A stretch of 34,904 nucleotides of DNA from Candidatus Woesearchaeota archaeon (GTDB lineage Archaea; Nanobdellota; Nanobdellia; Woesearchaeales; ARS49). Each line of letters starts with the position of its first letter. Position 1 is the first letter of the stretch. Made by a program: the position numbers and the translations under genes. Below are positions 1,687 to 26,810 of this stretch, in pieces. The notes beneath the pieces were generated by a model, which saw nothing but the letters and a program-made list of their open reading frames with translations, searched no databases and had not been told where the DNA came from. The stretch covers positions 1 to 34,904 of the forward strand of contig JAHWHT010000002.1 in assembly GCA_019323135.1 (NCBI GenBank). Reading direction: 5' to 3'.

Positions 1687-1687
1687 A

Positions 1688-2620: not shown

Positions 2621-3648
2621 AGCTGTATTTTATCGCAAGTACGTTCAGGGGTTTTGGTTCTGGCAAAGGCTACTGGTTTCATAAGGCTGCAGAATTACTT
2701 TCTAAAAAAATAGACGTAAAAATATTTAGCATGAGGTTATTTAATGAAAAACCAGCTAATGTAAATTGTCTAAAAAAGAAATTCTGCAGAAAAATAGCAG
2801 AAATACGAAGAGAATGCAAAAAAAACAAGGCAGTCTTGCATTTTCCACAGTATCATCTCGCTTTATTCAGTTTTATCCCGAGGTTTTTTTTCAAGTGTCC
2901 GATAGTTATTGGACCAAACACTCTGCCGCTTCAAATTCCTAACAAAAACAAGAAGCCTTCCTTCAAAGAGCGACGCATTATCAACATGAAGTTTGATATG
3001 TTCACTGCTCTTAGCGATGCGCATAAAATAATTCTTGAAAATTACGGTATTCCCGCAAATAAAATAAAAGTGATTAAACCAGGTATTGAACTGGATATCT
3101 TCAAGCCAATGCCAGTCAACCGAAAGAAGTTCGGAATTGAGGAAAAAGATTTTGTTTTCGCATTTATCAACCGATTTGCAGAAGTCAAGCAGTTTGATTT
3201 GTTTGAAAAAGCAATGATGCAAATTATAGATAAACACAAGCACGTTAAATTCTTGATTATCGGTAAAAAATTGCCTGTTCAACATAAGAATATAATCAAC
3301 ATCGGATTTATCAACAGAATGAATCTTCCTAAACATTATAATTTATGCGACGTATATCTTATCACATCCGAATGGGAAACATATTCTATCGCAGGTATGG
3401 AAGCATTATCCTGCGGAAAACCATGTATTATGACTGATGTCGGAGGCAATCCTGAGCAGATAATTCCTGGAAAAAATGGATTTTTAGTTAAAAAAGACTG
3501 CAGTAATTTGATTGAAACAATGGAAAACTGCATAAACAATCCTAAATTGATTAAACAGATGTCTAAAAATGCTCGTGAATTAGCACTAAAGAATTTTAAT
3601 TGGGATGGCAAGATAAAAGAATTGATAAAGCTTTACCAAAATCTTTAA
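2617..3648 (+). CDS. GT-B fold glycosyltransferase (GT4-like)
   Basis: An EX7E-type region is present (SEWETYSIAGMEALSCGKPCIMTDVGGNPEQI). ATG 2617 overlaps the upstream TGA (ATGA), so the track start at 2566 is probably too long. Confidence 0.8.
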   Translation: MKLYFIASTFRGFGSGKGYWFHKAAELLSKKIDVKIFSMRLFNEKPANVNCLKKKFCRKIAEIRRECKKNKAVLHFPQYHLALFSFIPRFFFKCPIVIGPNTLPLQIPNKNKKPSFKERRIINMKFDMFTALSDAHKIILENYGIPANKIKVIKPGIELDIFKPMPVNRKKFGIEEKDFVFAFINRFAEVKQFDLFEKAMMQIIDKHKHVKFLIIGKKLPVQHKNIINIGFINRMNLPKHYNLCDVYLITSEWETYSIAGMEALSCGKPCIMTDVGGNPEQIIPGKNGFLVKKDCSNLIETMENCINNPKLIKQMSKNARELALKNFNWDGKIKELIKLYQNL

Positions 3649-3674
3649 AAAACAGCCGCCCTTAACTAAAAATA

Positions 3675-4295
3675 ATGAAACCGCAATTGAAAAAAATAAG
3701 ATATAAGCACAAATTAGTAGCGACTTTGCTTCAAGGTAAAGAAAAAGTGCTAGATATAGGTTATGCAAAACATCCTAATCCTTTTTTGAATAATGCGCAC
3801 GGTATTGATATTCAAGATTTAGGTAAACCAGCAAACTTTATCGAAACCAAAATAGCAAACCTGAATACAGACAAAATACCCTATCCGAATAAATTTTTTG
3901 ATGGAATAACTGCGTGTGGATTAATAGAACATTTAGAGAATCCACAAGATTTTTTGAGAGAATGTAATAGAGTATTGAAAATAGGGGGCAAATTGGTGCT
4001 AACCACACCAAACATTCTAGGATACATGAACGTACTCGGCGAATTATTGAACCGACCTGATGGAGATAAAGGAGCACACTTCCAAGAATATTCGCAAAGA
4101 GTATTGAAAAGAATACTAAGACGGAATGGGTTTTCTAATGTTCAAGTAAGGGGTATGTTCTTTAGGTTAAACAAAAGATTTTGGTTTAAAACAAAAAACT
4201 GCTGGCTGTCTCCCCAATTATTAGCAATGGGAACAAAAGCAAAAAACCCTGAAACCAAAATAATGTATGGTGACGGTACAATCATAAGCGATTAA
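3675..4295 (+). CDS. class I SAM-dependent methyltransferase
   Basis: VLDIGYA (motif I-like), GLIEHLENP and GGKLVLTTPN. Confidence 0.7.
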   Translation: MKPQLKKIRYKHKLVATLLQGKEKVLDIGYAKHPNPFLNNAHGIDIQDLGKPANFIETKIANLNTDKIPYPNKFFDGITACGLIEHLENPQDFLRECNRVLKIGGKLVLTTPNILGYMNVLGELLNRPDGDKGAHFQEYSQRVLKRILRRNGFSNVQVRGMFFRLNKRFWFKTKNCWLSPQLLAMGTKAKNPETKIMYGDGTIISD

Positions 4296-5842
4296 ACAAA
4301 TCGTTTAATGATTTTCTTTGCAAAATTAAGATTTAATCCTGATTTTCGTTCTATTGCTACAAGAATCATCAAATCCTCTTTATTGAATGACTTTAATAGA
4401 AGTAATAATCCCAAATATACCGCACAAAATAAAGCCAAAGTAACTAATAGTTCTAACAGAGAATATGGTCGGAAAAACTTGGTTAATACAGCATAACTTA
4501 AACATAGAGGTAATACTGCGCTTAATACATATTTCAAATACAATTTTAAATCATGACTAAATCCGATCATAGATCGAACTTTGAAAAAGAAAACAAATTC
4601 TCTTAAGATGACAAATGTGCTAGTTGCAACTGCAGCGCCGATTATGCCATATTTTGGAATTAATATCATATTTAAAACAATATTAAGAATAACTGCAACC
4701 AGATTGGTACAAAAAATAAATTTAGTTTTCTTGAACGCTTTTAAAACTGGATCTGTAGGACCATTTATAACATTGATAAAATATGCCACTAACAGCACAA
4801 CTAAAGCAGCAGAACCACCCACATAAGCTTTACCAAACAGAGTTTTTAATACAACCGACGGGAAAAACAAAACAATAAGAAAAACCGGGAAAGTTAAAAC
4901 AAATATCCATCTTTTTATCACTGCAAAAACTTCTCCAAGCCAAACATGTCTATTTTTACCGATGGATTCAGATGCTATTGGATAGAATATTTGACTAAAT
5001 GCAGTCAAAAATACCCCCAATATTGCCATAAGAGGCAAAACTGCATTATAAACACCCACATCTGCTGCAGTTTTAAAAATACCTAAAAGAAACGTATCAC
5101 CCCAACCCATTATATTCAAAAATATGCCTGAAAAAAAAAGAGGTGCAGAAAATTTGATTAGTTTTTTGTATTCATACTTTGTTTTATGCACCATTCCAAA
5201 TACAGGAAACACTTTCCATTGAAGCAGAATAAATCCCAATAATACTGCTGCCAATATAGAAATCAAATACGCCCAGGATATCTGCAGCACAGTACCTCCA
5301 AGTACAACAATAATTCCCACAAGTATCAAATTTATTGCGTAAGTAAATATGTTTTCAACTAATTGTTTGTATTCTGGTTTTTTGTATGCAAGGAAAAAAG
5401 AATTAACCAACCGAAATAAAACATATATTGGCAGTGCAAGTGCAAAAATTTTTAGGACTGGAATGAATTTTTCAGTATGAAACCATCCAATTGCAATCTG
5501 TTTCGAAAAAATCACCAGCAGCACAGTCATCACCAATGCTATAGGAAACCCTATTCTTACTGCTGCCCAAAAAATGCCCTTTATTCTGCTTGGATCTGCT
5601 TTACCCCTGTAGAACGCAACATACCTCATAAGGCCTTCCTTCACCCCAAACAGAGATATAATCAACCCCAAGCTCAATACCATCTGGCCTAATGCAATCA
5701 AACCATAATCCGAAGGCCCCAAATATCTAGTCAATACAATTCTATAAACAAAATTAAGGATATATGCAAGAAAAGTTCCTACAAAAATAATTCCTGCACC
5801 TCGCACAACTTGTTTCAGAAGCTGATGTTTTTCCTTAGACAT
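4292..5842 (-). CDS. MOP-superfamily polysaccharide/oligosaccharide flippase (Wzx-like)
   Basis: About 517 aa and polytopic throughout, with a typical Wzx/MATE-like composition. ATG 5842 (MSKEKHQLLKQ..) is preferred over the TTG at 5863. Confidence 0.75.
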   Translation of the reverse strand: MSKEKHQLLKQVVRGAGIIFVGTFLAYILNFVYRIVLTRYLGPSDYGLIALGQMVLSLGLIISLFGVKEGLMRYVAFYRGKADPSRIKGIFWAAVRIGFPIALVMTVLLVIFSKQIAIGWFHTEKFIPVLKIFALALPIYVLFRLVNSFFLAYKKPEYKQLVENIFTYAINLILVGIIVVLGGTVLQISWAYLISILAAVLLGFILLQWKVFPVFGMVHKTKYEYKKLIKFSAPLFFSGIFLNIMGWGDTFLLGIFKTAADVGVYNAVLPLMAILGVFLTAFSQIFYPIASESIGKNRHVWLGEVFAVIKRWIFVLTFPVFLIVLFFPSVVLKTLFGKAYVGGSAALVVLLVAYFINVINGPTDPVLKAFKKTKFIFCTNLVAVILNIVLNMILIPKYGIIGAAVATSTFVILREFVFFFKVRSMIGFSHDLKLYLKYVLSAVLPLCLSYAVLTKFFRPYSLLELLVTLALFCAVYLGLLLLLKSFNKEDLMILVAIERKSGLNLNFAKKIIKRFV

Positions 5843-5865
5843 ATAAAGATAAAACAAAAACAAGA

Positions 5866-5873
5866 TTTATAAA
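5866..5873. promoter_or_regulatory. single palindromic TATA box shared by divergent genes
   Basis: TTTATAAA is its own reverse complement. Exactly 23 nt separate it from ATG 5897 (+) and from ATG 5842 (-). Confidence 0.55.
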
Positions 5874-5896
5874 CCTTATGTATTTGAAAAGTAAAT

Positions 5897-6550
5897 ATGA
5901 TCTCCATAACAATCCCTGCCTACAATGAATCAGACATAATAGCAAGTACCATCCAAAATCTTCAAAAATTTTGCACAAAACAAAAAATCCCAATAGAAAC
6001 CATAGTAGTAGACGACGCTTCTACAGATAACACCTCAAAAATCGCCAAAAACGCAGGCGCACGAGTGTTAAGAAATAATCAAAATCGCCGCTCATCATAC
6101 ACAATTCTTAAAGGAATAAAGAACGCAAAATACAATAAAATACTGATTGTTGATGCAGATAATGAAATTCCAATACAAAACATTCTCCCAGTACTCAAAA
6201 TAACTCGAGGATACCTCATAATTGGCCAAAGAAAGTATTTGCCACGCAGAAGTGAGCGTTTTCTTGCTTTTTGGACAAAACATTTGCTAAAAATTAACGA
6301 TCCGTTATGCTACCTTAAATTCTTTGACAAAAGAGATCTAAAAGGCATAAACTCAATCCATACAAAAGAGAGATATGCATTTCAGCTCATAGAATTAGCC
6401 ATAAAAAATAATATTAAAATTAAGAATCTCCCTGTTAAAAACGTCAAGCGCCGACAAGCTTCAAAACACACATCTAATTTAAGAATCTGGATTACGATTT
6501 TGAAGAATATGTTTAAGACGTTTCAGTTGTGTTTAATAAAGAAAAAATAA
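5897..6550 (+). CDS. family 2 glycosyltransferase (dolichyl-phosphate sugar synthase-like)
   Basis: ISITIPAYNE..VVDDASTDNT..VDADNE. Confidence 0.75.
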   Translation: MISITIPAYNESDIIASTIQNLQKFCTKQKIPIETIVVDDASTDNTSKIAKNAGARVLRNNQNRRSSYTILKGIKNAKYNKILIVDADNEIPIQNILPVLKITRGYLIIGQRKYLPRRSERFLAFWTKHLLKINDPLCYLKFFDKRDLKGINSIHTKERYAFQLIELAIKNNIKIKNLPVKNVKRRQASKHTSNLRIWITILKNMFKTFQLCLIKKK

Positions 6551-6552
6551 AT

Positions 6553-7761
6553 TTAGATATAATCTTCTCCATTATACCTAACTTCTGCGTCTTTCGCTAT
6601 GGATCTATTCACAGCGTCAACTAACTTCTCTGATCTCATTTGGTCAGCAAATGTTGCCACTGCCACAGGTTTTTTGCCAGTCTCAGCCCAATCAAGAAAT
6701 TTCTCAAACTGTGTTCCAAATTCATCTGCACTAAGGTGCACTTCATTTACCATTAATTTACCTAATCCGCTTCTGTCTTTTTTTGTTTCATCTAGACATC
6801 CGTGCCAGGCATATATTCCATTTCTTATATGCTTGCCATGTTCTTTATATTTGTCTCTTAAATCAGTTATATCAACGTGCATTGTTACCGATCTCTGAAA
6901 CCTTTCTCCTTCAGGAAGTTCTCCGATTATCTCTATAACTCTTCCTTTTCTTGGATTCTCAAAATCATTATAAACAAAAGCCATTCTGCCGTCTTTATAT
7001 TTCAATGTTGCCATTGATGCTTTTGATATTCCTGCAACAACATATTTTTCACCTTTGAAATTATCCTCACTCAAATACCTTGTTCCTGTTTTATCAGTAG
7101 CGTTCTTCCAGTTTTCAGGGTTTACAATTATCTCTCCTTCTGAATCCACTGCATTAACCCTATACGGCAGTCCCTGCATTAACACAGACAATATGCTAAA
7201 TGGATGAGGTCCTTCTTCTGTTGTTATTCCAGGAATAACGTGCTCTCTTGGTCCTCTCTCTTTAACCCAGCTTATGTTAACTCTTCTTACATCAATTTTA
7301 TCTTCTTGAATCAACTGCATCGCTCTCATAAAAGCTGGATGAAACAGCATCTGGCTTCCTGCCACATTAGGAACTCCGTTTGTTTCCACAAGTTCTATTA
7401 ATTTTAATGCTTGATTATAATCTGCGTCTATTGGTTTTGATAAAAATACAGGAATTCCATTCGCAACCAATGGTGCTGTGGTTTCGTAATGCATTGTTGC
7501 AGGTGTATTGACAAATGCAAATTGTATTTGGTCTAGAATTTGGTTTGCAGGCATTTCGCCTTGTTTTACTTTGATTCTTCTTTCAGGAGGTATTCCATAT
7601 TTTTCTCCTTTTTCATCAAGTGCATCTTGGCTTGGATCTGCCAGCCAGATTTTATCTACTCTATCTGATAAGTCTTTACCCCATTGTCCTGCAAATCTTT
7701 GCAGCGGAAAATTAGCAAAATTTCCTGCCCCTAACATCAATCCATTCATTTTTTTATTCAT
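6553..7761 (-). CDS. Gfo/Idh/MocA-family NAD(P)-dependent oxidoreductase
   Basis: N-terminal Rossmann region (GLMLGAGNFA..), the SKP motif region (VFLSKPID), and a C-terminal alpha/beta domain of matching length. Confidence 0.7.
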   Translation of the reverse strand: MNKKMNGLMLGAGNFANFPLQRFAGQWGKDLSDRVDKIWLADPSQDALDEKGEKYGIPPERRIKVKQGEMPANQILDQIQFAFVNTPATMHYETTAPLVANGIPVFLSKPIDADYNQALKLIELVETNGVPNVAGSQMLFHPAFMRAMQLIQEDKIDVRRVNISWVKERGPREHVIPGITTEEGPHPFSILSVLMQGLPYRVNAVDSEGEIIVNPENWKNATDKTGTRYLSEDNFKGEKYVVAGISKASMATLKYKDGRMAFVYNDFENPRKGRVIEIIGELPEGERFQRSVTMHVDITDLRDKYKEHGKHIRNGIYAWHGCLDETKKDRSGLGKLMVNEVHLSADEFGTQFEKFLDWAETGKKPVAVATFADQMRSEKLVDAVNRSIAKDAEVRYNGEDYI

Positions 7762-7848
7762 TATAAACCACCTAAGAATGTTTAATTTTTCTCCCCTTTT
7801 AAAGCTTCAGGAATATAGCCCTATAGAGTAGTGATACCTTTCACAACA

Positions 7849-7856
7849 TTTATAAA
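7849..7856 (+). promoter_or_regulatory. TATA box TTTATAAA for 7880..9151 operon
   Basis: 23 nt upstream of ATG 7880. Confidence 0.5.
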
Positions 7857-7879
7857 GCGTTCCTAGTTCAGTGATTTTC

Positions 7880-9151
7880 ATGGGGAAAACAGTAATCATC
7901 GGCCTCGATGGTGTGCCATACCATCTAATAGACAATTTGTCTAACAAAGGAGTTATGCCTAATTTTAAGAATCTTAAGGATAAAGGCATTTTCAAGGAGA
8001 TGGAATCTGCAATTCCTGAAATCTCTTCTGTTTCCTGGAGTTCGATAATAACCGGCGTAAATCCTGCAGAGCATGGTATTTTCGGTTTTATGGATATGAT
8101 TCCAGGGACTTACACCATGTCTTTTCCTAATTTTAACTCAATTAAAGCGCCTGCATTCTGGCAAACAATGGATGGAACACATGCAATAATCAATGTCCCT
8201 TCTACTTATCCTGCAAAACCAATGAACGGCTTTCATGTTGCAGGTTTTGTTGCACTAGATTTAGAAAATGCAGTTTATCCACAAAAATATATTCCTATGC
8301 TTGAAGAATTGAATTATCGTATTGATGTCGATTCTGAAAAAGGACACAGTTCTAAAGAATTATTTTTCAAGGATTTGCACAGAACCTTAGACGCAAGACA
8401 AAACACAGCCCTACAGCTATGGGATGAAACAAAATGGGATACCTTCATGTTTGTAATAACCGGAACAGATCGAATTGGTCATTTCTTATGGGACGCATAT
8501 GAAGATGAAAATCATGAGCATCACCAAAACTTTTTAGATTATTTCAAAAGAGTTGACGAAGTTGTAGGAAGCATCACAAATAAAATGTCAGACGAAGATT
8601 CTTTAATCATGATATCTGACCACGGCATGGGCTTGTCAGAAACAAATGTAATCGTCAACGCAGTATTGAAAAATAATGGCTTCTTAGAATTAAACGATGC
8701 AGAACGCCAAAATCACAATCACATCAAAGCAAATTCCAAAGCTTTTGCATTAGACCCAGGAAGAATATACTTAAACAAAGAAGGCAAATACCCTAAAGGC
8801 ACTGTCAAAAAAGAAGATGAAGAACAGATTCTCAAAGACTTAACAAGCACCTTTGAAAATTTAGAAAAAGACGGCAAAAAAGTTATAAAGAAAATTTTCA
8901 GAAAAGAAGAAGTCTACAGCGGCCCGCATCTAGAGCAAGCTCCAGACCTTATCCTGCTTTCAAATAAAGGATTTAATTTAAGAGGAAATTTAACCAAGAC
9001 TGAAATTTTTGACAAAGATATTTTTACTGGAATGCACACACAGGAAGATGCATTTTTATTTGTTAAAACACCAAAAAGCATAGAGCTTCCTAAAAATCCA
9101 AAAGTAACTGATGTTTTTCCAATTATAAATAAAATAAACGGTGATACTTAA
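7880..9151 (+). CDS. alkaline-phosphatase-family protein (type I phosphodiesterase/nucleotide pyrophosphatase-like)
   Basis: VIIGLDGVPYHL, SSVSWSSIITGVNPAEHGIFG (nucleophile region), TGTDRIGH and ISDHGM. The stop overlaps the next ATG (TAATG). Confidence 0.75.
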   Translation: MGKTVIIGLDGVPYHLIDNLSNKGVMPNFKNLKDKGIFKEMESAIPEISSVSWSSIITGVNPAEHGIFGFMDMIPGTYTMSFPNFNSIKAPAFWQTMDGTHAIINVPSTYPAKPMNGFHVAGFVALDLENAVYPQKYIPMLEELNYRIDVDSEKGHSSKELFFKDLHRTLDARQNTALQLWDETKWDTFMFVITGTDRIGHFLWDAYEDENHEHHQNFLDYFKRVDEVVGSITNKMSDEDSLIMISDHGMGLSETNVIVNAVLKNNGFLELNDAERQNHNHIKANSKAFALDPGRIYLNKEGKYPKGTVKKEDEEQILKDLTSTFENLEKDGKKVIKKIFRKEEVYSGPHLEQAPDLILLSNKGFNLRGNLTKTEIFDKDIFTGMHTQEDAFLFVKTPKSIELPKNPKVTDVFPIINKINGDT

Positions 9152-10674
9152 TGAAACCATGTAATGCAAATAAAACGTGCTGGAACTGTCCAGCAGCAAT
9201 GTTAAAAGGTAATGTTGACTTTAGGGCCTGCGGCCAGTCAAAAGAAAAGAAAAGACAATTGTCTGAAGAAAAACAAGTTATGATTGAATGTTCAAGAAGA
9301 AAAGAATTAGGTCATTTTGAGCCTACAATTACTTTTGAACAGTGTCCTGAATGGGAATTGAATGAAAATTATAATCTTTACATGCTAAAGAACATGCGCG
9401 TCATGATTCTTGGTCTTGACGGGTATCTTGGCTGGGCTCTTGCTTTGAAACTAGGAAAATTAGGTTTTAAAGTAAGTGGTATTGATAATTACTGGAGAAG
9501 AGATTGTGTCATGGAAAAAGGTGCACACACAGTTGTTCCTATCCAAAGAATGACAGAACGACTTCGCGCTGCTAAAGAAGTTCTAGGTATTGATATTAAT
9601 TTCAGAAAAATGGATATTCTTGACCGGCCTAAATTAAAAGAATTTTTAGAAGAAACAAAACCCGAAGCAATTATCCATTACGCAGAGTGTCCTAGCGCAC
9701 CATACAGCATGGTTGATGTTGATCACGCAGTTAAAGTTCAAGAAAATAATGTTTTAGGAACATTAGGATTATTGTGGCTGATAAAAGAAGTTGTTCCAGA
9801 ATCTTGCTTAATCAAATTAGGCACAATGGGAGAATACGGTGCTCCATTGACCGGAAGACCAATTTTTGAAGGAATTTTCCCTGCAAATGCAACCCTTAAG
9901 TGGGATGATAGAGAATGGAGTTTAGGTGGAGAACTAACTCCGAGAGATCCAGTAAGTTTTTATCACGTCAGTAAAGTTCAAGACACATTTAATTGTTATG
10001 AAGCCTGCAAGTATTGGTGGTTAAGATCTTATGATGTTATGCAGGGAGTTATTTACGGCGTTCATACTGAAGAAGTTGCTGCTGACCCCCGATTAAGAAC
10101 CAGATTAGATATGGATGAATGGTTTGGAACAGTAGTTAACAGATTTGTTACTCAATCCATTCTGGGAATGCCTTTGACAATCTATGGCGAAGGCGAGCAG
10201 CTTAGAGGATTTATTGCACTAGATGATGCAATGCAATGCATGGTTAGATTAATTTCCAGTCCTCCAGAAGCAGGACAATATGATGTTGTTAATCAGGTTT
10301 CTGGATTAATCAGAGTAAAAAACCTTGCAGAGACTGTTGCAAATGTTGCTAAGGATTTTGGAATAAACACTAAGATTCAAAGAGTGGAAAATCCAAGAGT
10401 TGAGGCAGATAAGCATCCATTAGAAGTTATCTCAACTAAACTACCTGCAGATTTAGGTTTTAATGCAAGCATTACTTTTGATGCAGAAATCAGAAAAATG
10501 TTTGAATTATTAACTCAGCCAGAAATCAAAGCAAGGATTGAAGAGAAAAAACACGCAGTTATGCCTAAAACAAGATGGGATGGTGTAAAGCAGGAAAGTG
10601 AATCTTTTGAGACTTATGATCCTGGAACAAAGAATCTTGAAGATGGACATAAGGGCGTACTGCACACAAAATAA
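9151..10674 (+). CDS. sqd1: UDP-sulfoquinovose synthase (SQD1/Agl3 family SDR) with 81-aa Cys-rich N-terminal extension
   Basis: The body from M82 aligns along its whole length with plant SQD1 as I recall it. Shared blocks are GxDGYxGWAxAL, ECPSAPYSM, NNVLGTLxLL, KLGTMGEYG, SFYHVSKVQD, QGVIYG, RLDMDEWFGTVVNRF, PLTIYGEGEQLRGF and NPRVEA. Confidence 0.85.
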   Translation: MKPCNANKTCWNCPAAMLKGNVDFRACGQSKEKKRQLSEEKQVMIECSRRKELGHFEPTITFEQCPEWELNENYNLYMLKNMRVMILGLDGYLGWALALKLGKLGFKVSGIDNYWRRDCVMEKGAHTVVPIQRMTERLRAAKEVLGIDINFRKMDILDRPKLKEFLEETKPEAIIHYAECPSAPYSMVDVDHAVKVQENNVLGTLGLLWLIKEVVPESCLIKLGTMGEYGAPLTGRPIFEGIFPANATLKWDDREWSLGGELTPRDPVSFYHVSKVQDTFNCYEACKYWWLRSYDVMQGVIYGVHTEEVAADPRLRTRLDMDEWFGTVVNRFVTQSILGMPLTIYGEGEQLRGFIALDDAMQCMVRLISSPPEAGQYDVVNQVSGLIRVKNLAETVANVAKDFGINTKIQRVENPRVEADKHPLEVISTKLPADLGFNASITFDAEIRKMFELLTQPEIKARIEEKKHAVMPKTRWDGVKQESESFETYDPGTKNLEDGHKGVLHTK

Positions 10675-10675
10675 A

Positions 10676-10990
10676 ATGGAGCTTACCGATTCAAATTTTG
10701 AGCAAGAGGTTTATCATTCAGATATTCCTGTTTTTGTTGATTTTTGGGCATCTTGGTGTCCACCCTGCAAGATGATGGAGCCAGTGATTAATTCATTGGA
10801 AAAAGAATATGACGGCAGGGTTAAGATTTGCAAGATAAATATTGACAAGAATAGACTTGCTGCCTCAAAATTTGACATCAAAGGGGTTCCTTTATTTATT
10901 TTATTCAAGAATGGAGAAATCGTAGATCAAGCAGTTGCAGCAAAAACAGAAAGTCAATTAAAAGAAATGATTAATCAAGTATTACCATGA
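10676..10990 (+). CDS. trx: thioredoxin (WCPPC active site)
   Basis: VFVDFWASWCPPCKMM..GVPLFILFKNGE. ATG 10676 lies directly after the sqd1 stop. Confidence 0.85.
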   Translation: MELTDSNFEQEVYHSDIPVFVDFWASWCPPCKMMEPVINSLEKEYDGRVKICKINIDKNRLAASKFDIKGVPLFILFKNGEIVDQAVAAKTESQLKEMINQVLP

Positions 10991-11934
10991 CAAAAGTATT
11001 GATAACCGGCGGATGTGGATTTATTGGTTCTAATTTGGTTGAGTTTATTTTACAGAAAACTGATTGGCAAATTAATGTTCTAGACAATCTTACTGGAGGC
11101 AAGTTAGAAGACATAGAACAAATAGCTGGCTTCAAAGAGCGCAGTACTTTTTTCAAAGGAGACATTAGAAACAAAGAAGACGTTTCAAAAGCAGTTGCAG
11201 GTTGCGATTATGTTGTTAATCTTGCTGCACAGGTTGGCGTAATGCCTTCTGTTGAAGATCCATTATTTGATGCAGATGTTAATATAATTGGAACTATTAC
11301 TGTTTTGAATGCTTGTGTAAAGAACAAAATAAAGAAATTTGTTCAAGCATCTTCTGCTGCCCCTCTTGGCGACCAGGAAATGCCCATGCATGAGAAAAAA
11401 GTTCCTCAACCTCTTTCACCATATGGCGCTAGCAAGCTTGCAGACGAAGCATACTGCAGTGCATTTGCCGCTTCTTACGGGCTAAACACTGTTGCTTTAA
11501 GATTTTCTAACGCTTACGGCATTAAATCTTATCAAAAAGGCAGCGTCATTCCTCTATTCATAAGACAGATTCTTAATGGAGAAACCTGCACTATTTTTGG
11601 AGATGGTGAACAAACAAGGGATTTTATCTATGTTACAGACATCTGTAATGGTATTTATTTAGCATTGACCACAGAACTAAAAAACAAATTTGAGTTGATT
11701 CAACTTGCTACAGGCAAAGAAACTTCAATGAACGAATTATTCAAAGTACTAAAACAAGAATTTGAAAAGCATGGTAAAACAGTACAGGATGCCAAATACG
11801 TTCCAGCAAGGCCTGGCGAAATCATCAGAAACTATGCAGATATCACAAAATTAAGGACTTTGTTGAATTATGAGCCCAAAGTAGACCTAAAAGAAGGCAT
11901 TTCAAAAACAGTTTCTTGGTTCATTAATCAATAA
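10987..11934 (+). CDS. NAD-dependent sugar-nucleotide epimerase/dehydratase (GalE-like SDR)
   Basis: VLITGGCGFIGSNLV and YGASKLADE (YxxxK). ATGA overlap with trx. Confidence 0.8.
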   Translation: MTKVLITGGCGFIGSNLVEFILQKTDWQINVLDNLTGGKLEDIEQIAGFKERSTFFKGDIRNKEDVSKAVAGCDYVVNLAAQVGVMPSVEDPLFDADVNIIGTITVLNACVKNKIKKFVQASSAAPLGDQEMPMHEKKVPQPLSPYGASKLADEAYCSAFAASYGLNTVALRFSNAYGIKSYQKGSVIPLFIRQILNGETCTIFGDGEQTRDFIYVTDICNGIYLALTTELKNKFELIQLATGKETSMNELFKVLKQEFEKHGKTVQDAKYVPARPGEIIRNYADITKLRTLLNYEPKVDLKEGISKTVSWFINQ

Positions 11935-11961
11935 ACTATTCTAGAATCTAAAACCATAAGA

Positions 11962-11991
11962 TTTATATATGGCATACATAATTCTATGTAT
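11962..11991 (+). promoter_or_regulatory. TATA box (TTTATATA 11962-11969) plus inverted repeat ATACATA-N4-TATGTAT (11974-11991); candidate RHH operator
   Basis: A perfect 7-bp inverted repeat lies between the TATA box and the predicted transcription start. It is immediately upstream of two RHH genes. SD-like GAGGG/AAGGT precedes ATG 12009. Confidence 0.45.
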
Positions 11992-12008
11992 TTAAGAGGG
12001 TATAAGGT

Positions 12009-12341
12009 ATGGAAAACAGGACTACAATCCAAATTACAGAGGATTTAAGAAAACAACTCAAAGTGCTTGCAGCCAGAAGAGACATCTCTTACCAAGAATT
12101 ACTGCAAGATATGGTATCTGTTTTCAAAGAATTAAATCAAGAAAAAACAATTATTTCCATTCCTTCAATGCTTGCTGGCAAAGTCAATGAAAAGATTGAA
12201 AAAACTGATTTTAGTTCAGTAAGCGAATACACCACATTTGTTTTGCGACAAATGCTTATGGAAACAGCACACAAACAAGACATCGCTTCATCTGATGAAG
12301 AAAAAATAAAAGATAAATTAAGAAAATTAGGTTATTTGTGA
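12009..12341 (+). CDS. ribbon-helix-helix (CopG/Arc/MetJ-like) protein with two RHH-like modules and an acidic linker plus ..KLRKLGYL tail
   Basis: N-terminus TTIQITEDLRKQLKVLAARRDISYQELLQDMV fits the RHH pattern. The second module IISIPSMLAGKVNEKIEKTDFSSVSEYTTFVLRQM is paralogous to the next ORF. Confidence 0.7.
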   Translation: MENRTTIQITEDLRKQLKVLAARRDISYQELLQDMVSVFKELNQEKTIISIPSMLAGKVNEKIEKTDFSSVSEYTTFVLRQMLMETAHKQDIASSDEEKIKDKLRKLGYL

Positions 12342-12350
12342 GGTAACAAA

Positions 12351-12569
12351 ATGAAAATTGAAATTCCTGAAGATTTAATAAAAAAATTACAAAAAAGAGT
12401 TGATTCAACAGATGAGTTTGATTCTGTTGAAGCATATGTCAGCTACATACTTAAGCAGGTTGTAGAAAGACTCGAAACTGAAAATAAAGAAGATGAAAAG
12501 CCAGCTTTTAGCGAAGAAGATGAAGCAAAAGTAAAAGAAAGGCTAAGAAGTTTAGGATACTTGGACTGA
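12351..12569 (+). CDS. ribbon-helix-helix protein with acidic linker plus ..RLRSLGYLD tail
   Basis: KIEIPEDLIKKLQKRVDSTDEFDSVEAYVSYILKQVV fits the RHH pattern. SD GAGGT lies upstream. Confidence 0.7.
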   Translation: MKIEIPEDLIKKLQKRVDSTDEFDSVEAYVSYILKQVVERLETENKEDEKPAFSEEDEAKVKERLRSLGYLD

Positions 12570-12579
12570 GGTGGAAAAA

Positions 12580-13398
12580 ATGGATCATTTAGATGAATTA
12601 GAAAGTAAAAGCATATACATTATTCGTGAAGCATACAAACAGTATAAAAATCTTGCAATGTTATGGTCGATTGGTAAAGATTCAACAGCTTTGTTATGGC
12701 TCTGCAGAAAAGCATTTTTTGGAAGAGTTCCATTTCCAGTAGTGCATATTGATACAAGCTATAAATTCAAGGAAATTTATGAATTTAGAGATAAGTTTAC
12801 CAAAGAATGGGATTTAAAGTTGGTTGTTGGCAAGAACGAAGAAGCTATTGCTGCAGGCATGAGTCCTACTGAAGGAAATAAATTTGAGTGCTGTAACCAA
12901 TTAAAGACTGTTGCATTAAAACAGACTATTGCAAAGCAGAAGTATACTGCATTGCTATTAGGCATCAGAAGAGACGAGCACGGCATAAGAGCAAAAGAAA
13001 GAGTTTTCTCTCCTAGAAATCAGCAGTTCAAATGGGATTACAAGAATCAGCCTCCAGAACTATGGGATCAGTATAAATCAAAACAGGCAGAAGATGAACA
13101 CTTAAGAGTTCACCCGATTTTGCACTGGACTGAACAGGATATCTGGGATTATGTCAAAAGAGAAAAAATTCCAATTACAGAGTTATATTTTGCAAAAAAG
13201 ATGGAAAATGGCGAATCAAAAAGATATAGAAGTATTGGTTGTGAAACTTGCTGTAATCCAATCTGTTCTAATGCAGACGATGTTGACAAGATAGTTGAGG
13301 AATTAAGAACTACAAAAGTCGCAGAGCGTTCAGGCAGAGCACAAGACAAAGAATCTGCGTACATCATGCAGAAGCTTCGGTCTCTCGGATACATGTGA
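12580..13398 (+). CDS. cysD: sulfate adenylyltransferase subunit 2 (CysD, PP-loop ATP pyrophosphatase fold) with extra Cys motifs
   Basis: LESKSIYIIREA, SIGKDS (PP-loop), LLGIRRDEHGIRAKERVFS and HPILHWTEQDIWDY are colinear with E. coli CysD as I recall it. ATG 12580 follows SD GAGGTGG. Confidence 0.85.
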   Translation: MDHLDELESKSIYIIREAYKQYKNLAMLWSIGKDSTALLWLCRKAFFGRVPFPVVHIDTSYKFKEIYEFRDKFTKEWDLKLVVGKNEEAIAAGMSPTEGNKFECCNQLKTVALKQTIAKQKYTALLLGIRRDEHGIRAKERVFSPRNQQFKWDYKNQPPELWDQYKSKQAEDEHLRVHPILHWTEQDIWDYVKREKIPITELYFAKKMENGESKRYRSIGCETCCNPICSNADDVDKIVEELRTTKVAERSGRAQDKESAYIMQKLRSLGYM

Positions 13399-13402
13399 TA
13401 AT

Positions 13403-13609
13403 ATGGTTGACAAACACATTAGAAGCATTACAAAAGGCTTGAGTTGGAGGGTTCTTGCATCCCTCACAACTGTTATTTTAGTTTATGCTTTCACTGGAAA
13501 ATTGGCTCTAGCAGCAGGCATAGGTATACTAGAAGTTATTACCAAACTGCTCATCTATTATGTTCATGAACGGGCCTGGAATAATGTAACATGGGGGAAA
13601 ATAAAATGA
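13403..13609 (+). CDS. DUF2061-type small two-TM membrane protein
   Basis: SITKGLSWRVLASLTT..YYVHERAWN is the DUF2061 signature as I recall it. Confidence 0.6.
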   Translation: MVDKHIRSITKGLSWRVLASLTTVILVYAFTGKLALAAGIGILEVITKLLIYYVHERAWNNVTWGKIK

Positions 13610-14052
13610 GCAATTGCATATTTTGTAAAATAGAAAAAGGAGAAGTTCCTGCAAAGAAAATATATGAATCTAAATATTTTTTTGCAATACTCGATGCACA
13701 CCCAATAGTTGAAGGACACTGTCTTTTAATTCCAAAGAGACATTATGAAACTATTCATAAAATGAATAAAGAAGAAAGCCTGCAATTCGGTGAAGACTGT
13801 ATTACTCTTGCCAAAATGCTAAAAAATTACTGGCCAGATCTGACAATAGCAAACTCAAATGGAAAATTCGCAAGCCAAGCAGTACCGCATTATCACGTCC
13901 ACTTCATTCCTAGGCAGGAAGGAGATAGGCTTTGGGACGAAGATAAATCCAAGATATCATTAGACGTTAGTTCTGGTTTTGAAAGATTAAAACCATCCAA
14001 AGATGAATTAGAACAATTAGCAAACAAACTAATAGGTGATACACATGAATGA
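13606..14052 (+). CDS. HIT-family nucleotide hydrolase/transferase
   Basis: CIFCKI..., followed by the histidine triad [12 protein letters not shown] overlap with the DUF2061 gene. Confidence 0.85.
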
Positions 14053-15295
14053 ACAAGAACATTTTAAATTTGCAATCGTTGGTCACGTAGACCACGGTAA
14101 ATCTACTCTTATTGGCAGGTTATTCTATGATACTGGTTCCTTGCCAGAGGGAAAGATGGAAGAGCTCAAGAAAACCTGTGATGAATTAGGCAAAGATATT
14201 GAATTTGGTTTTATCATGGATCATTTGCAGGAAGAAAGAGAGCAAGGCGTAACTATTGACACTGCTCAGGCTTTTTTCAAGACAGATAAAAGACATTATG
14301 TCATAATCGATGCTCCAGGACATAAAGAATTCACCAAAAACATGATTACTGGAGCTTCACAAGCAGAAGCAGCTTTATTGATTGTTGATGCTGATGAAGG
14401 AGTTCAAGAGCAGACAAAAAGACACGCATACATCTTAAGCATGCTTGGATTAAAGCAGGTTATTGTTGTAATGAACAAGATGGACTTAGTAGAATACAAA
14501 GAAGAAAGATTCAAAGAAGTTGAAAAGAATTTGCTTGAATTTTTAGGTTCATTGAACATAAAACCATCTTACATAATTCCAATTTCTGCAAAGTTGGGCG
14601 ATAATATCGCAAAGAAATCAGAAAACATGTCTTGGTACACAGGAAAAACTGTTCTTGAAGCTCTGGACACATTTGAATCTCTTGCCAGCCTAAGTAATGC
14701 ACCACTTAGATACCCTATTCAAGATGTTTACAAGTTTGATGACAAGCGAATTTTGGCAGGCAGGGTTGAGGCAGGCATTCTTAAGAAAGGTAACCGATTA
14801 TTATTTTTGCCGTCTAACAAAGAAAGCACAATTACTACAATTGAAGACATGAATGGCGAAGTAGAAAGCGTTGAAGCAGGCAAAAGCACAGGAATAACAA
14901 TAGAACATCCGTTATTCGTAGAGCGAGGAGAAATTGCTTGCGATCCGGATGCAGAAAAGCCTACTGTTACAACCAGATTCAGAGGAAAAGTTTTCTGGAT
15001 GTCTAAGCTGCCGTTCAATAAATCTGAAAAAATAACTCTTAAATGCGCTACTCAAGAAGTTGAGTGTGTTATGGAAAAGATTGAGAAAAAGTTAGATTCC
15101 TCAACACTCGCAGTTCTTGAAGAAGATGCTTCTGAAATTAAAGAATGGGAAGTTGGAGAAATTGTCTTCAAAACAGAGGCTCCGGTTGTAATCGAGGATT
15201 TTAACGAAACTCCTGAATTAGGCCGGTTTGTCTTGGTTAAAGGAGAAGATGTTTGTGCAGGCGGAATTGTCACACATAAAGACTTAGAGAACTAA
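14045..15295 (+). CDS. cysN: sulfate adenylyltransferase subunit 1 (CysN GTPase), no fused APS kinase domain
   Basis: [14 protein letters not shown] (G1), DAPGHKEF (G3), NKMD (G4) and EF-Tu-like domains II/III. About 416 aa, which leaves no room for CysC. Confidence 0.85.
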
Positions 15296-15325
15296 AGTAA
15301 CAACAGTTACGACAAAGGTGGGAAA

Positions 15326-15640
15326 ATGGGAATATTTAATAAAGGATTAGATGGGTTTATCGAGCAAGTATCTAAAAATAAACCAACAAAAATAGAAATT
15401 ACAACAGATATACAAGAAGGCGGGGACGCACATTATGTTTGTGAGTATTTTGGTGTTTTTAAAGGCATATATGAAGACAGAAAACCTATTATTGCTCATA
15501 AGAAATATGGCGGAACATTAACTAATCACGCAGAAATGGATGAAGCAATGGATCAAGACATCAAAAAACTTCAAGAACTGGATATCCCTATCTTTAAAAC
15601 AAAAGGATTTCAAGATGATTCAGATAAAACAAATAATTAA
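15326..15640 (+). CDS. hypothetical protein
   Basis: ORF with SD AGGTGG upstream and no recognisable motif. It overlaps the next gene by 26 nt. Confidence 0.45.
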   Translation: MGIFNKGLDGFIEQVSKNKPTKIEITTDIQEGGDAHYVCEYFGVFKGIYEDRKPIIAHKKYGGTLTNHAEMDEAMDQDIKKLQELDIPIFKTKGFQDDSDKTNN

Positions 15641-16478
15641 ACTATTCAGACCAGCACAGTGGTACAAGAATTTACTAGTTTTTGTCCCTATTATTTTCTC
15701 AGGCAATTTACTGCATATGAATTCGCTTTTGCTTACTTTTATTGGTTTTATGAGTCTTTGTGCAGTCTCTTCTGCAAATTACATACTAAATGACATGATA
15801 GATCGCAAAAGAGATAAAAAGCATCCAGAAAAGCGTAAGAGACCTATTGCATCTGGCAAAATCAAGATTTGGCAGGCAAGCATATTGACAATAATGTTAT
15901 TAGCAATTTCTATTGGTCTTGCAGCGCCACTGAATATTAATTTCTTTTACGCAATCGCAGTATTGTTTGGTATCACTTTACTGTATTCTCTCCTGCTTAA
16001 AAAAGAGCCTTTTGTAGATATAATCACAATAGCAATTAATTTTGTAGTACGGGCAGTCGCAGGCGCTTTAATCCTTAGCATTGAAGTATCTCCTTGGCTT
16101 ATTGCATGTGTTTTCTTTTTAGCAGTATTTCTTGTTTCAGGCAAAAGACATGCAGATGCAATGTTCCTTGGCGAAAAAGCAAAAAAACATAGAAGCACAC
16201 TTAAAGTGTACACTCCAGAAATCACCAGTTCTTTGATGATAATCACTACTGCGTTATTGGCTACTGCTTACAGCTTATACTCTTTTTTCAGCGATAACAC
16301 GCCTTATTTGATTTTCACTCTGCCTTTTGCACTCTATTTAATTTTCAGGTATTTCTACTTAGTTTATTCTGGTTCCAAGATAGCACGGCATCCAGAAAGA
16401 ATTTTTTTAGACTTAAGAATGGATATTGGCATGCTTTTATGGGCTGCTGTTACTTTTGTTATACTTTATTTCTTATAG
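15615..16478 (+). CDS. UbiA-family prenyltransferase, decaprenyl-phosphate phosphoribosyltransferase (DPPR synthase)-like
   Basis: NDMIDRKRDKKHPEKRKRPIASG (NDxxDxxxD..K.xRPxxSG), polytopic. The start MIQIKQIIKLFRPAQWYKN is typical of the family. Confidence 0.75.
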   Translation: MIQIKQIIKLFRPAQWYKNLLVFVPIIFSGNLLHMNSLLLTFIGFMSLCAVSSANYILNDMIDRKRDKKHPEKRKRPIASGKIKIWQASILTIMLLAISIGLAAPLNINFFYAIAVLFGITLLYSLLLKKEPFVDIITIAINFVVRAVAGALILSIEVSPWLIACVFFLAVFLVSGKRHADAMFLGEKAKKHRSTLKVYTPEITSSLMIITTALLATAYSLYSFFSDNTPYLIFTLPFALYLIFRYFYLVYSGSKIARHPERIFLDLRMDIGMLLWAAVTFVILYFL

Positions 16479-17176
16479 ATTTCATTTACTTCTTGGTACT
16501 GTTCGTGACTTCCTATATCAAACCAAGGTTCTGTATAAATTACTGCATAAATTGGCTTTGTTTTCATCAAAAGCTTAGGCAAAGGAACTCCATCTTGCAC
16601 ATTCTGAGCACAAACTGTCGGAATATCTTCTTTCCTGATAAAATAACATAAAGTTGATGCAAGAGTAGATTTAGGATTTTCTGGTTTTTCCTCTATTTCT
16701 ATGATTTTTCCTTCAGAATCCAAGGCGCAGATACCCATCTTTTGAGCTTCCTCAACCGTTTTTACATCATATACTCCTATTGTTGAGGCGTTTTTCTTTT
16801 CTGACAACTGCGCCAATCTATTTAAGTCAAATTCAAATAAATTATCCCCGCCAACTATCAATAGATCTTCTTGTATATCTGCCTGGTTTATCGCATAGCA
16901 AATATCTCCCATAACACCCAATCTATCTTCATTGCTGGTTGTTCCGTCGTTTAGTATCGTAACTCCTTCTTGGTCTTTTGCCCAAGTTTGAAAAGTTTCA
17001 TAGAACTTATCATTAGTCACAATAAAAATCTCATTTATTTCTGGAACTTCCCTTATTTTATCTAGAATCCACCCCAGTATTGGCTTGCCTGCAACATCTA
17101 GCAAGGGCTTTGGTTTGTCTTTTGTCAAGGGATATAGCCTTGTCGCGTATCCTGCTGCCAATATTACTGCTTTCAT
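16466..17176 (-). CDS. sugar-1-phosphate nucleotidyltransferase (G1P uridylyl/thymidylyltransferase-like)
   Basis: MKAVILAAGYATRLYPLTKDKPKPLL signature. TATA 17202-17209 lies 25 nt upstream. Confidence 0.8.
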   Translation of the reverse strand: MKAVILAAGYATRLYPLTKDKPKPLLDVAGKPILGWILDKIREVPEINEIFIVTNDKFYETFQTWAKDQEGVTILNDGTTSNEDRLGVMGDICYAINQADIQEDLLIVGGDNLFEFDLNRLAQLSEKKNASTIGVYDVKTVEEAQKMGICALDSEGKIIEIEEKPENPKSTLASTLCYFIRKEDIPTVCAQNVQDGVPLPKLLMKTKPIYAVIYTEPWFDIGSHEQYQEVNEIYKK

Positions 17177-17247: not shown

Positions 17248-17268
17248 TCGCCTATTATTCTATACTTT

Positions 17269-17380
17269 TAGACGGCCATAGGGGTCGGGTTCCACCCAGT
17301 CTCATTCGAACCTGGCAGTTAAACCGACTTCCGTATCGAACTGTACTGCATTGCGCGGGAAACTCGATAAGCTGTCTACC
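17269..17380 (+). rRNA. 5S ribosomal RNA (archaeal type), stand-alone
   Basis: GACGGCCAUAG...CCAGUCUCAUUCGAACCUGG..AGUUAA..GUACUGC..GCGGGAAAC. Helix I is closed by 17269-17276 pairing with 17371-17378. A T8 terminator follows at 17381-17388. Confidence 0.85.
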
Positions 17381-26803: not shown

Positions 26804-26810
26804 TTTCAAA

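Follow-up and report, generated by a model that had tools for sequence, protein, structure and literature searches.

A conserved SQD1 fusion module and a sulfate-activation operon in the surface-glycan island of a Woesearchaeota archaeon

Results

A sulfo-sugar region composed of two transcription units

The DNA examined here (the window) is a stretch of 35 kb (34,904 nucleotides) from contig JAHWHT010000002.1 of a Candidatus Woesearchaeota archaeon (assembly GCA_019323135.1), and it is archaeal by content, with genes for topoisomerase VI, RLI, NFACT and an archaeal SecDF. Positions 718-17176 form a surface-glycan island that includes a sulfo-sugar region. At the heart of this region lies a gene for a fusion protein related to the UDP-sulfoquinovose synthases SQD1 and Agl3, flanked by genes for a phosphodiesterase of the alkaline phosphatase family (AP enzyme) and for a thioredoxin and followed by an operon for sulfate activation by CysD and CysN (Table 1). 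An earlier reading of the sequence alone (the original prediction) had placed thirteen genes here, and all of them were recovered by mapping of open reading frames (ORFs) and by family searches at the coordinates, on the strands and in the families proposed. Its central statement, that an SQD1/Agl3-type enzyme is coupled to CysDN activation, is borne out by the family matches and by the occurrence of the locus in five assemblies. These five are independent and carry the identical locus, one of them being the NCBI metagenome-assembled genome (MAG) GCA_019322955.1. Another Woesearchaeota MAG (locus L011), whose SQD1-like protein is 89% identical to that of the window, keeps the same 14-gene order.

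The genes of the region are tightly spaced. The AP and SQD1 genes overlap in the sequence TAATG, a single nucleotide separates the SQD1 stop codon from the thioredoxin ATG, and the genes for the thioredoxin and for a short-chain dehydrogenase/reductase (SDR) overlap in the sequence ATGA; the ATGA coupling that had been predicted for the thioredoxin therefore exists toward the downstream SDR gene, but not toward SQD1. Between the SDR gene and RHH1, the first of two genes for regulators of the ribbon-helix-helix (RHH) type, lies a gap of 75 nt that contains a TATA-like box and a palindrome, and on this ground we divide the region into two transcription units, Unit 1 (7871-11934) and Unit 2 (11962-15295).

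The SQD1-like fusion protein belongs to a widespread module

The SQD1-like protein is composed of an 80-residue N-terminal extension with five cysteines and an SQD1 core (9394-10674). The core covers positions 1-383 of the 384-position profile NF041015, with the next family scoring 48 bits, and it aligns with plant SQD1 (PDB 1QRR/1I24) along its whole length. Its glycine motif for NAD binding, ILGLDGYLGW, aligns with VIGGDGYCGW of SQD1 and is of the extended-SDR type, and the catalytic residues Thr145, Tyr182, His183 and Lys186 (SQD1 numbering) are retained within KLGTMGEYG and SFYHVSK, both motifs being invariant in an alignment of homologs. The Pfam families Epimerase and GDP_Man_Dehyd match the protein as well. 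Judged by its sequence, the protein is clearly a member of the SQD1/Agl3 family. Because it matches the full profile and yet stays below the equivalog cut-off of 575 bits, we assign it to a distinct SQD1 subfamily.

Could such a distant synthase make something other than a sulfonated sugar? A persulfide or thiol of the cysteine-rich extension might add to the 5,6-ene intermediate of the SQD1 reaction, and thioredoxin might then free a 6-thio sugar. The score of 412 against a cut-off of 575 would allow for this scheme, and the combination of a cysteine-rich carrier with thioredoxin resembles the sulfur relays of thiosugar and thionucleoside synthesis. However, every SQD1 catalytic residue is kept, including the SQD1-specific histidine, the recurrent linkage to sulfate activation described below points to oxidized sulfur, and genes for cysteine desulfurases or sulfur carriers do not recur in the neighborhoods. 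A thiosugar product is hence very improbable in our view.

When one genome per species was scanned, the full fusion, extension included, turned up in no fewer than 226 species from many archaeal and bacterial phyla, with identities of 65-75% (about 70% for homologs from Woesearchaeota, Diapherotrites, Thermoplasmatota, Asgard archaea and Patescibacteria). Its hosts comprise Woesearchaeota, Iainarchaeota (annotated as Diapherotrites), Aenigmarchaeota, Thermoplasmatota, Asgard archaea, Saccharibacteria and other Patescibacteria, with many of the module hosts being Thermoplasmata. A sulfo-sugar pathway had been thought unusual for an apparently small genome, an expectation that does not hold given the presence of the module in Woesearchaeota, Iainarchaeota, Aenigmarchaeota, Saccharibacteria and other Patescibacteria. 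For a closer view of the neighborhoods, ORFs were called in 83 distinct loci (1.2 Mb of flanks, 10 kb per side) and labeled with the window proteins and the Cys proteins of Escherichia coli; loci are cited below by number (L). All 80 of the 80 retrieved loci derive from MAGs or single-cell genomes, many of them from sediment, subsurface or hydrothermal settings. A strict catalytic motif was matched in 80 of the 83 loci. Of 76 loci, 72 have the AP gene next to the SQD1 fusion, two further ones have it slightly downstream, and the thioredoxin gene stands immediately 3' of the fusion in every locus with room for a gene (79/79). AP enzyme, SQD1 fusion and thioredoxin thus form a conserved, horizontally spread module.

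Other partners are less constant. A small GT2 glycosyltransferase resembling AglJ and dolichyl-phosphate hexose transferases occurs in 38 loci, directly after the thioredoxin in about 25, and a representative of this group matches AglJ and the dolichyl-phosphate hexose transferase best, below the cut-offs of both. An ortholog of the SDR was detected in 17 of the 83 loci; the SDR itself stays below every NCBIfam equivalog cut-off.

Some copies of the fusion are interrupted by inteins composed of a LAGLIDADG homing endonuclease and a Hint domain (P0057, 845 aa; L105 7965-10916, 983 aa, from IMG/VR), as would fit a highly conserved and often transferred gene. A scan of viral contigs with the SQD1 fusion returned one copy only, which bears an intein, so viruses are no major reservoir in that collection. 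Six Thermoplasmata loci contain a 621-aa ORF family (representative L048 3149-5014, minus strand), which we read from its sequence as a candidate tungsten-type aldehyde:ferredoxin oxidoreductase; four of these loci carry it on the strand opposite to SQD1, no more than about 350 nt from an end of that gene.

Literature on sulfoquinovose in DPANN archaea and Patescibacteria, and on SQD1/Agl3 with thioredoxin, was searched and the module was not found described. To judge from this search, no characterized synthase has been described with the fusion domain, with an obligatory thioredoxin or with an AP partner.

An obligatory, non-canonical thioredoxin

The thioredoxin of the window exceeds the TIGR01068 cut-off (96.8 bits) and has the thioredoxin fold. 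A CxxC motif is present in 80 of 81 orthologs and the canonical CGPC in none; CPPC, CTAC, CLPC, CVPC, CIPC, CPVC and CAPC occur across the loci, and the window protein has WCPPC rather than WCGPC. Why should a sulfoquinovose synthase be accompanied by thioredoxin at all? SQD1 chemistry does not require an external reductant. The same holds for Agl3 (PMC4388408). The universal linkage of a thioredoxin to an enzyme without need for it therefore points to a redox step in the supply of substrate.

A new five-cysteine domain, fused or standing alone

A Pfam search with the N-terminal extension alone gave no match. All 83 loci nevertheless encode the five cysteines together with the RRPELGxFEP motif, and a search of 1.8 billion representative proteins showed that the domain also exists as a standalone protein of 68-108 residues with the five cysteines kept. 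It is a new protein domain. In three independent contexts (L095-L097, L098-L100 and L107), the standalone gene lies directly 3' of a gene for an AP enzyme of 422-426 residues; the AP enzymes of L095 and L099, the only two compared, are 40-44% identical to that of the window. The next gene after the standalone one in L098 and L099 encodes an RHH regulator of the type found in the CysDN operon, and in L107 the pair sits among nucleotide-sugar genes. Taken together, the standalone and fused contexts tie the domain to the AP enzyme and to SQD1 and, in the fused form, to the thioredoxin as a third partner.

Another standalone copy (L104 33-1647) has a 172-aa orphan on one side and a UbiA-family gene on the other and is encoded on a contig that also carries MCM, thymidylate synthase, dUTPase and dCMP deaminase and that may belong to a virus or mobile element. 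A metagenome scan with the standalone protein P0244 gave one short, irrelevant match.

The AP enzyme has a complete bimetal site

A structure model of the AP enzyme obtained with AlphaFold2 has high confidence (mean predicted local distance difference test score, pLDDT, 93.6). The closest structures are PhnA (TM-score 0.66) and nucleotide pyrophosphatases/phosphodiesterases (NPPs; TM-score of about 0.6), at 13-16% sequence identity. Residues D13, S52/S53, N108, D200, H204, D250, H251 and H389 are invariant among 33 sequences and make up the full bimetal site together with the serine nucleophile. With a complete site and an NPP-like nucleotide-binding fold in the model, the enzyme looks active. 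It also appears to be cytoplasmic, as its sequence starts at the first core strand without a leader peptide. The databases give no functional name for it, and its score with the PhnA equivalog model is 28 bits, where the cut-off is 408.

Relatives of this enzyme turn up near sulfate activation on their own account. In six loci, short PF01663-like proteins of 232-320 residues are encoded beside CysDN, Sat/CysC or a CysD-like paralog (Table 1), two of these loci (L092 and L094) being CysDN operons that were retrieved independently of the SQD1 module. The AP family therefore tracks sulfate activation even without SQD1.

A CysDN operon with an iron-sulfur-type CysD

CysD has an intact SIGKDS PP-loop and matches CysD of Pseudomonas syringae (PDB 1ZUN) at 224 bits, and its partner CysN is encoded 640 nt further 3' in the same operon. 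As predicted, CysN has no fused kinase: of the 632 positions of the CysNC profile it covers 20-428 only, and the domain for the kinase of adenosine 5'-phosphosulfate (APS) is absent. Both proteins are clear orthologs of the P. syringae pair and are likewise encoded in the same direction. In contrast to that pair, the window CysD belongs to a short clade without the insertion of about 30 residues and with five extra cysteines at iron-sulfur positions, genes for a membrane protein and a HIT protein stand between cysD and cysN, RHH regulators stand in front, and the kinase is missing.

The extra cysteines of CysD, ECC (106-108) and GCETCC (223-228), align exactly with the CC/CxxC ligands of the [4Fe-4S] cluster in Mycobacterium tuberculosis APS reductase (PDB 7LHR), where the corresponding segments are ECC and GCAPC (SIGCxxC). 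The CC...CxxC pattern is kept in 119 of the 120 closest homologs, and this iron-sulfur-type clade extends over Woesearchaeota, Micrarchaeota, Methanoperedens, Methanosarcinaceae, Phycisphaerae and Acidobacteriota. By this alignment, CysD probably binds an iron-sulfur cluster. Elsewhere, operons of the clade contain RHH, CysD, TauE/HIT/DUF2061 and CysN genes, often together with a short AP-like protein, and no cysH, cysC or sir was found within 10 kb of them.

It is conceivable, then, that such a CysD is bifunctional and both makes and reduces APS in one site, with thioredoxin as the electron donor. CysD shares the fold of APS reductase. The exact coincidence with the cluster ligands, kept in 119 of 120 homologs, would fit, and so would the operons of Methanoperedens, of one member of the Phycisphaerae and of one of the Micrarchaeota, which have neither cysH nor cysC. 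Yet the catalytic cysteine of the CysH tail (ECGLH; KRECGLH in E. coli) is replaced by leucine in the aligned CysD tail, LRSLGYM. The additional cysteine of CxxCC is threonine in the CysDs of L009, L013, L018 and L020, the PP-loop and CysD-specific features are intact, and the cluster of APS reductases is itself not the reductant. Moreover, the module is also found with Sat/CysC or with CysDs that do not have those cysteines (L038, L065). Lacking the conserved nucleophile, CysD is a poor candidate for a reductase, and we dropped this notion as the main idea; the bifunctional enzyme is in our estimation a highly unlikely solution. The original prediction had named both the thioredoxin and the cysteine-rich features as suspects for the missing step. 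That suspicion is strengthened by the co-occurrence of the thioredoxin and by the alignment of the CysD cysteines with iron-sulfur ligands, whereas a replacement of the reductase by CysD is made unlikely by the missing nucleophile.

The genes between cysD and cysN vary. In other loci, this slot holds DUF2061, TauE or HIT, the HIT gene recurs there in L011 and L094, and DUF2061 is fused to CysC in L036. HIT enzymes liberate sulfate from APS. We rejected the HIT protein as a candidate for the missing step on this account and because it is found in three CysDN loci only.

The promoter region of Unit 2 contains a perfect 18-bp palindrome, ATACATAATTCTATGTAT, at 11974-11991, 18 nt 5' of the RHH1 start codon. 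An identical palindrome occupies the same position in L011 (at about 8268) and L018 (at about 12904), two other lineages that share the two-RHH arrangement, and it is found nowhere else in the 1.6 Mb examined. Its sequence and placement make it likely that the palindrome is an operator by which the sulfate-activation operon is autoregulated. The RHH_1 family matches RHH1 weakly. About 20 related regulators with the same tail are present in other loci and in many cases head the CysDN or Sat/CysC genes.

The tails of the two regulators, LRKLGYL (12321-12341) and LRSLGYLD (12546-12569), share the LGY(L/M) pattern with the CysD tail (13378-13398). Regulators with this tail head Sat/CysC loci without CysD as well.

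Activation genes were recruited repeatedly and a reductase was not found

No recognizable enzyme for the conversion of APS to sulfite is encoded in the window. Among its ORFs of at least 90 residues, a reductase for 3'-phosphoadenosine 5'-phosphosulfate (PAPS) other than CysD, an APS kinase, Sat and a sulfite reductase were not found, and a search of ORFs of at least 45 residues with the PAPS_reduct hidden Markov model (HMM), with E. coli CysC, CysH, CysI and CysJ and with an ATP-sulfurylase query yielded nothing further. In this sense the enzyme is missing, as had been claimed, but 35 kb do not show a genome-wide absence.

How regularly does the SQD1 module meet sulfate activation? The expected association is seen in a part of the neighborhoods: of the 83 loci, 20 have genes for sulfate activation no farther than 10 kb from the module, and the other 63 have none so near. 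The proposed single supercluster accordingly gives way to two separable modules. A first count, made before Sat-only loci were considered, had identified activation genes in 8 of the 34 loci whose flanks extend over 8 kb or more in both directions. CysDN is present in eleven loci (the window, L009, L011, L013, L017, L018, L020, L038, L065, L081 and L085), and Sat and/or CysC are present in nine (L026, L032, L033, L036, L052, L063, L073, L086 and L088). The activation genes are thus of two non-homologous kinds, are usually co-directional with the module, and in L022, L052, L065 and L081 genes of activation type abut the AP gene.

Ten of the CysDN loci contain neither CysC nor a sulfotransferase, which implies that APS itself must be consumed there. 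In the Sat/CysC loci, activated sulfate may serve O-sulfation where a sulfotransferase is present. Activation solely for PAPS-dependent sulfotransferases was considered as a general account and set aside; it fits some of the Sat/CysC loci and not the ten loci with CysDN only.

A CysH-type protein is absent from the 1.2 Mb of flanks of the 83 loci by a search with a PAPS-reductase-family HMM: as this model matched nothing beyond CysD and CysD-like proteins, CysH is absent from every locus examined. The CysD-like matches include two cysteine-poor paralogs of 279-281 residues that stand in place of CysDN in L014 (6368-7213, minus strand) and L022 (2536-3375, plus strand). Both have an intact PP-loop and an LR.LGYM tail, neither has the CC/CxxC motif or a CysN partner, and the L022 copy is entirely devoid of cysteine. 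In a Saccharibacteria MAG, such a CysD-like paralog is encoded directly 5' of the AP gene.

Other features of the window

Upstream of the sulfo-sugar region, a glycan-assembly cluster (718-7761) encodes a deacetylase, a GT2 and a GT1 glycosyltransferase, a methyltransferase, a flippase, a second GT2 enzyme and a GFO/IDH/MocA oxidoreductase. Downstream of cysN, the 104-aa orphan is lineage-specific and was seen in the window and in L011 only. The UbiA-family protein scores 203 bits with NF008977 (cut-off 234), and the convergently encoded nucleotidyltransferase resembles AglF only weakly (107 bits, cut-off 400). The UbiA start codon is uncertain: the longest ORF overlaps the orphan by 100 nt, and starts are called at later codons in other assemblies, giving 253-287 residues. 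A lone 5S rRNA gene (17268-17380, plus strand; Rfam 69.7 bits), the sole rRNA gene of the window, lies between the nucleotidyltransferase and NFACT genes. On the minus strand, ARAGORN calls an 88-nt tRNA with a four-base anticodon loop (26810-26897), which probably contains an intron, and a tRNA-Cys (GCA) is located at 31440-31511.

Table 1. Features of the sulfo-sugar region and short AP-like proteins of other loci (positions refer to the window unless a locus is given)
Feature	Position	Strand	Attributes
Small GT2 glycosyltransferase	5897-6550	+	same BLAST cluster as the GT2 of 38 loci
AP-family phosphodiesterase, PF01663	7871/7880-9151	+	Pfam 139 bits
SQD1-like fusion, 507 aa	9151-10674	+	NF041015 412 bits; PDB 1QRR 272 bits
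Five-cysteine domain	9151-9393	+	C10, C13, C27, C47, C65; TCWNCP...CGQ...EC.RRPELGxFEP...CPxW
Thioredoxin, WCPPC	10676-10990	+	TIGR01068 111 bits
Extended SDR, 315 aa	10987-11934	+	Pfam Epimerase and GDP_Man_Dehyd
Promoter/operator candidate	11962-11991	+	TATA-like TTTATATA, then perfect palindrome ATACATAATTCTATGTAT
RHH1, 110 aa	12009-12341	+	small RHH-type regulator
RHH2, 72 aa	12351-12569	+	small RHH-type regulator
CysD	12571-13398	+	PRK05253 366 bits (cut-off 195)
DUF2061 small membrane protein	13403-13609	+	Pfam 71 bits
HIT-family nucleotide hydrolase/transferase, HYHVHF	13591-14052	+	Pfam HIT 73 bits
CysN, 419 aa, without kinase	14036-15295	+	TIGR02034 360 bits (cut-off 336)
Orphan, 104 aa, hypothetical	15326-15640	+	no Pfam/NCBIfam match
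UbiA-family polyprenyl-phosphate transferase, DPPR-synthase-like	15540-16478	+	Pfam UbiA 106 bits
Sugar-1-phosphate nucleotidyltransferase, convergent	16466-17176	-	Pfam NTP_transferase 115 bits
Short PF01663-like protein	L014 8274-9032		
Short PF01663-like protein	L017 12066-12839		
Short PF01663-like protein	L020 14124-14912		
Short PF01663-like protein	L088 17464-18294		
Short PF01663-like protein	L092 12530-13228		
Short PF01663-like protein	L094 12492-13202		

Discussion

What does this region contribute to the surface glycan? We regard it as secure that it represents the sulfo-sugar branch of a glycan island, composed of a transferable SQD1 module and a sulfate-activation operon that is probably autoregulated. 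We infer that the product sugar is sulfoquinovose or sulfofucose and that sulfate activation is dedicated to it. From a biochemical perspective, Unit 1 would use its SQD1 domain to turn UDP-glucose and sulfite into UDP-sulfoquinovose; the SDR would then probably epimerize or otherwise tailor this compound, possibly to UDP-sulfofucose, and the GT2 enzyme probably loads the sugar on polyprenyl phosphate. Unit 2 would provide APS, made by CysD and CysN from sulfate, ATP and GTP. The N-glycan of Thermoplasma acidophilum contains sulfofucose, the C4 epimer of sulfoquinovose, by a biosynthetic route that has not been identified (PMC12421959). SQD1 followed by a GalE-like SDR would yield just this epimer, and by analogy the SDR is a candidate UDP-sulfoquinovose 4-epimerase.

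How might APS be converted to the sulfite that SQD1 requires? We envision a scenario whereby the module itself carries out the reduction. In a first step, the NPP/PhnA-like AP enzyme would bind the sulfonucleotide; the sulfuryl group would then pass to one of the cysteines in the five-cysteine domain or in the thioredoxin, giving S-sulfocysteine, and the CxxC thioredoxin would finally resolve this intermediate, so that sulfite would be freed beside the active site of the fused SQD1. The two-unit sulfo-sugar island with module-made sulfite is the best explanation of the findings as a whole, and we assign it a probability of roughly 0.4. Its core, a thioredoxin-resolved relay intrinsic to the module that converts APS to sulfite next to the SQD1 site, is put forward tentatively as the mechanism we consider most likely. 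The more specific proposal, that AP enzyme, five-cysteine domain and thioredoxin together constitute a CysH-independent sulfonucleotide reductase channeling sulfite into the fused SQD1, is rather doubtful, and the roles given here to the AP enzyme and to the five-cysteine domain, like the reduction step as a whole, should be read as proposals. What speaks for the relay is that genes for sulfate activation joined the module time and again and those for a reductase not once, that there are loci in which only APS is made, that the AP family is tied to sulfate activation, and that the five-cysteine domain is paired with the AP enzyme.

Several observations weigh against this scenario. The isolated five-cysteine domain was modeled with low confidence (pLDDT 57), so a structure was not obtained. 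In L101-L103, a glycan cluster combines an extension-free SQD1 core with the standalone domain and has neither AP enzyme nor thioredoxin (seen in L101). Conversely, the pair of AP enzyme and standalone five-cysteine protein also occurs without SQD1, thioredoxin and CysDN among nucleotide-sugar genes or in unrelated surroundings (L095, L107), which would agree no less with a function in the processing of nucleotide sugars. A PAPS-type sulfotransferase of 196 residues is often encoded in the Sat/CysC loci and could be the true consumer of activated sulfate there. About three quarters of the loci have no activation genes within 10 kb, and as the negative result for the window concerns 35 kb, there may be room for CysH elsewhere in the genome. 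The chemistry is demanding, too: NPP-type attack on APS normally gives sulfate, and we know of no enzyme of the AP superfamily that transfers a sulfuryl group to a thiol.

Alternatively, the pathway might be an ordinary split one, with a canonical CysH-type reductase or another source of sulfite encoded elsewhere in the genome. Thioredoxin and five-cysteine domain would then do no more than maintain the enzyme in its reduced form, control it through the redox state or bind a metal with a structural role, and the AP enzyme would work on a nucleotide sugar or a lipid carrier. We take this main rival to be a credible possibility, even if it is not the one we prefer. In many organisms, E. coli among them, cysH is not linked to cysDN, the window is just 35 kb long, and the 63 loci without nearby activation genes as well as the AP/five-cysteine pair in a nucleotide-sugar operon without sulfur genes (L107) are readily accommodated. 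On the other hand, a split pathway gives no reason for a thioredoxin of non-housekeeping type to accompany the fusion in all of the 79 loci, nor for activation genes to have been recruited 20 times and a reductase not once, and the Patescibacteria and DPANN hosts are generally without sulfur assimilation. Divergent homologs of APS/PAPS reductase have been reported elsewhere in the genomes of archaea with CysDN, namely in anaerobic methanotrophic archaea (ANME; PMC6286981), which lends weight to the split pathway. For DPANN genomes, the presence of sulfate adenylyltransferase was noted earlier without an explanation of what lies downstream (PMC8091004).

Sulfite might also originate from thiosulfate, an S-sulfonated thiol or some similar donor in place of APS. 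The five-cysteine domain would in that case offer a rhodanese-like cysteine that is regenerated by the thioredoxin, and CysDN would serve O-sulfation or general needs. Such a donor would account for the universal presence of thioredoxin and five-cysteine domain next to the patchy distribution of activation genes; moreover, the hosts are sediment anaerobes by their record titles, thiosulfate is available in such habitats, and the chemistry of thiosulfate:thioredoxin sulfurtransferases is established. But the domain shows neither rhodanese fold and motif nor a Pfam match, the AP enzyme is left without a role, and the joining of CysDN or Sat-CysC to the AP gene at the operon level finds no explanation. 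We therefore judge a thiosulfate-type donor improbable; together with the bifunctional CysD and the thiosugar product, it belongs to the less likely readings.

How does the proposed relay compare with known systems? With SQD1, SqdB and Agl3, the window protein shares the extended-SDR fold, the catalytic threonine, the tyrosine-histidine pair and the lysine, and this family is its best full-length match. It differs by the 80-residue five-cysteine N-domain, by an insertion before YHxSK, and by being encoded always with a thioredoxin and nearly always with an AP-family gene. With CysH, the relay would have in common that S-sulfocysteine is resolved by a CxxC thioredoxin to give sulfite, whereas no window protein has the ECGLH tail, and neither the AP enzyme nor the five-cysteine domain is related to proteins with the PAPS-reductase fold. 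The AP enzyme agrees with NPP and PhnA in fold (TM-score 0.6-0.66) and in a bimetal site with a Ser/Thr nucleophile; what sets it apart, besides the low sequence identity, are its apparently cytoplasmic location and its pairing with a five-cysteine protein or domain. A functional analogy, and nothing beyond that, may be drawn to the thioredoxin-coupled arsenate reductase ArsC, in which a phosphatase-fold enzyme likewise reduces an oxyanion by means of thioredoxin and a cysteine relay; there is no relationship in fold or substrate and no similarity in sequence. As for the destination of the sugar, Agl3 of Sulfolobus acidocaldarius provides sulfoquinovose for N-glycans (PMC4388408).

The findings reveal a highly conserved, horizontally spread version of the synthase in hundreds of uncultivated archaea and bacteria. 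The synthesis of sulfoquinovose is one of the main ways in which sulfur enters organic matter, and to our knowledge every characterized synthase uses free sulfite from the classical pathway. Even on the ordinary reading of a split pathway, the locus provides a candidate archaeal sulfo-sugar pathway, including a route to sulfofucose, together with a new protein domain and an iron-sulfur-type CysD clade that is open to direct testing. If sulfite is indeed made by the module, this would constitute a new route of sulfate reduction and would explain why CysDN is retained in many minimal genomes that have none of the subsequent enzymes. Very small genomes of archaea and candidate phyla would then be able to make sulfonated surface sugars from sulfate without classical assimilation.

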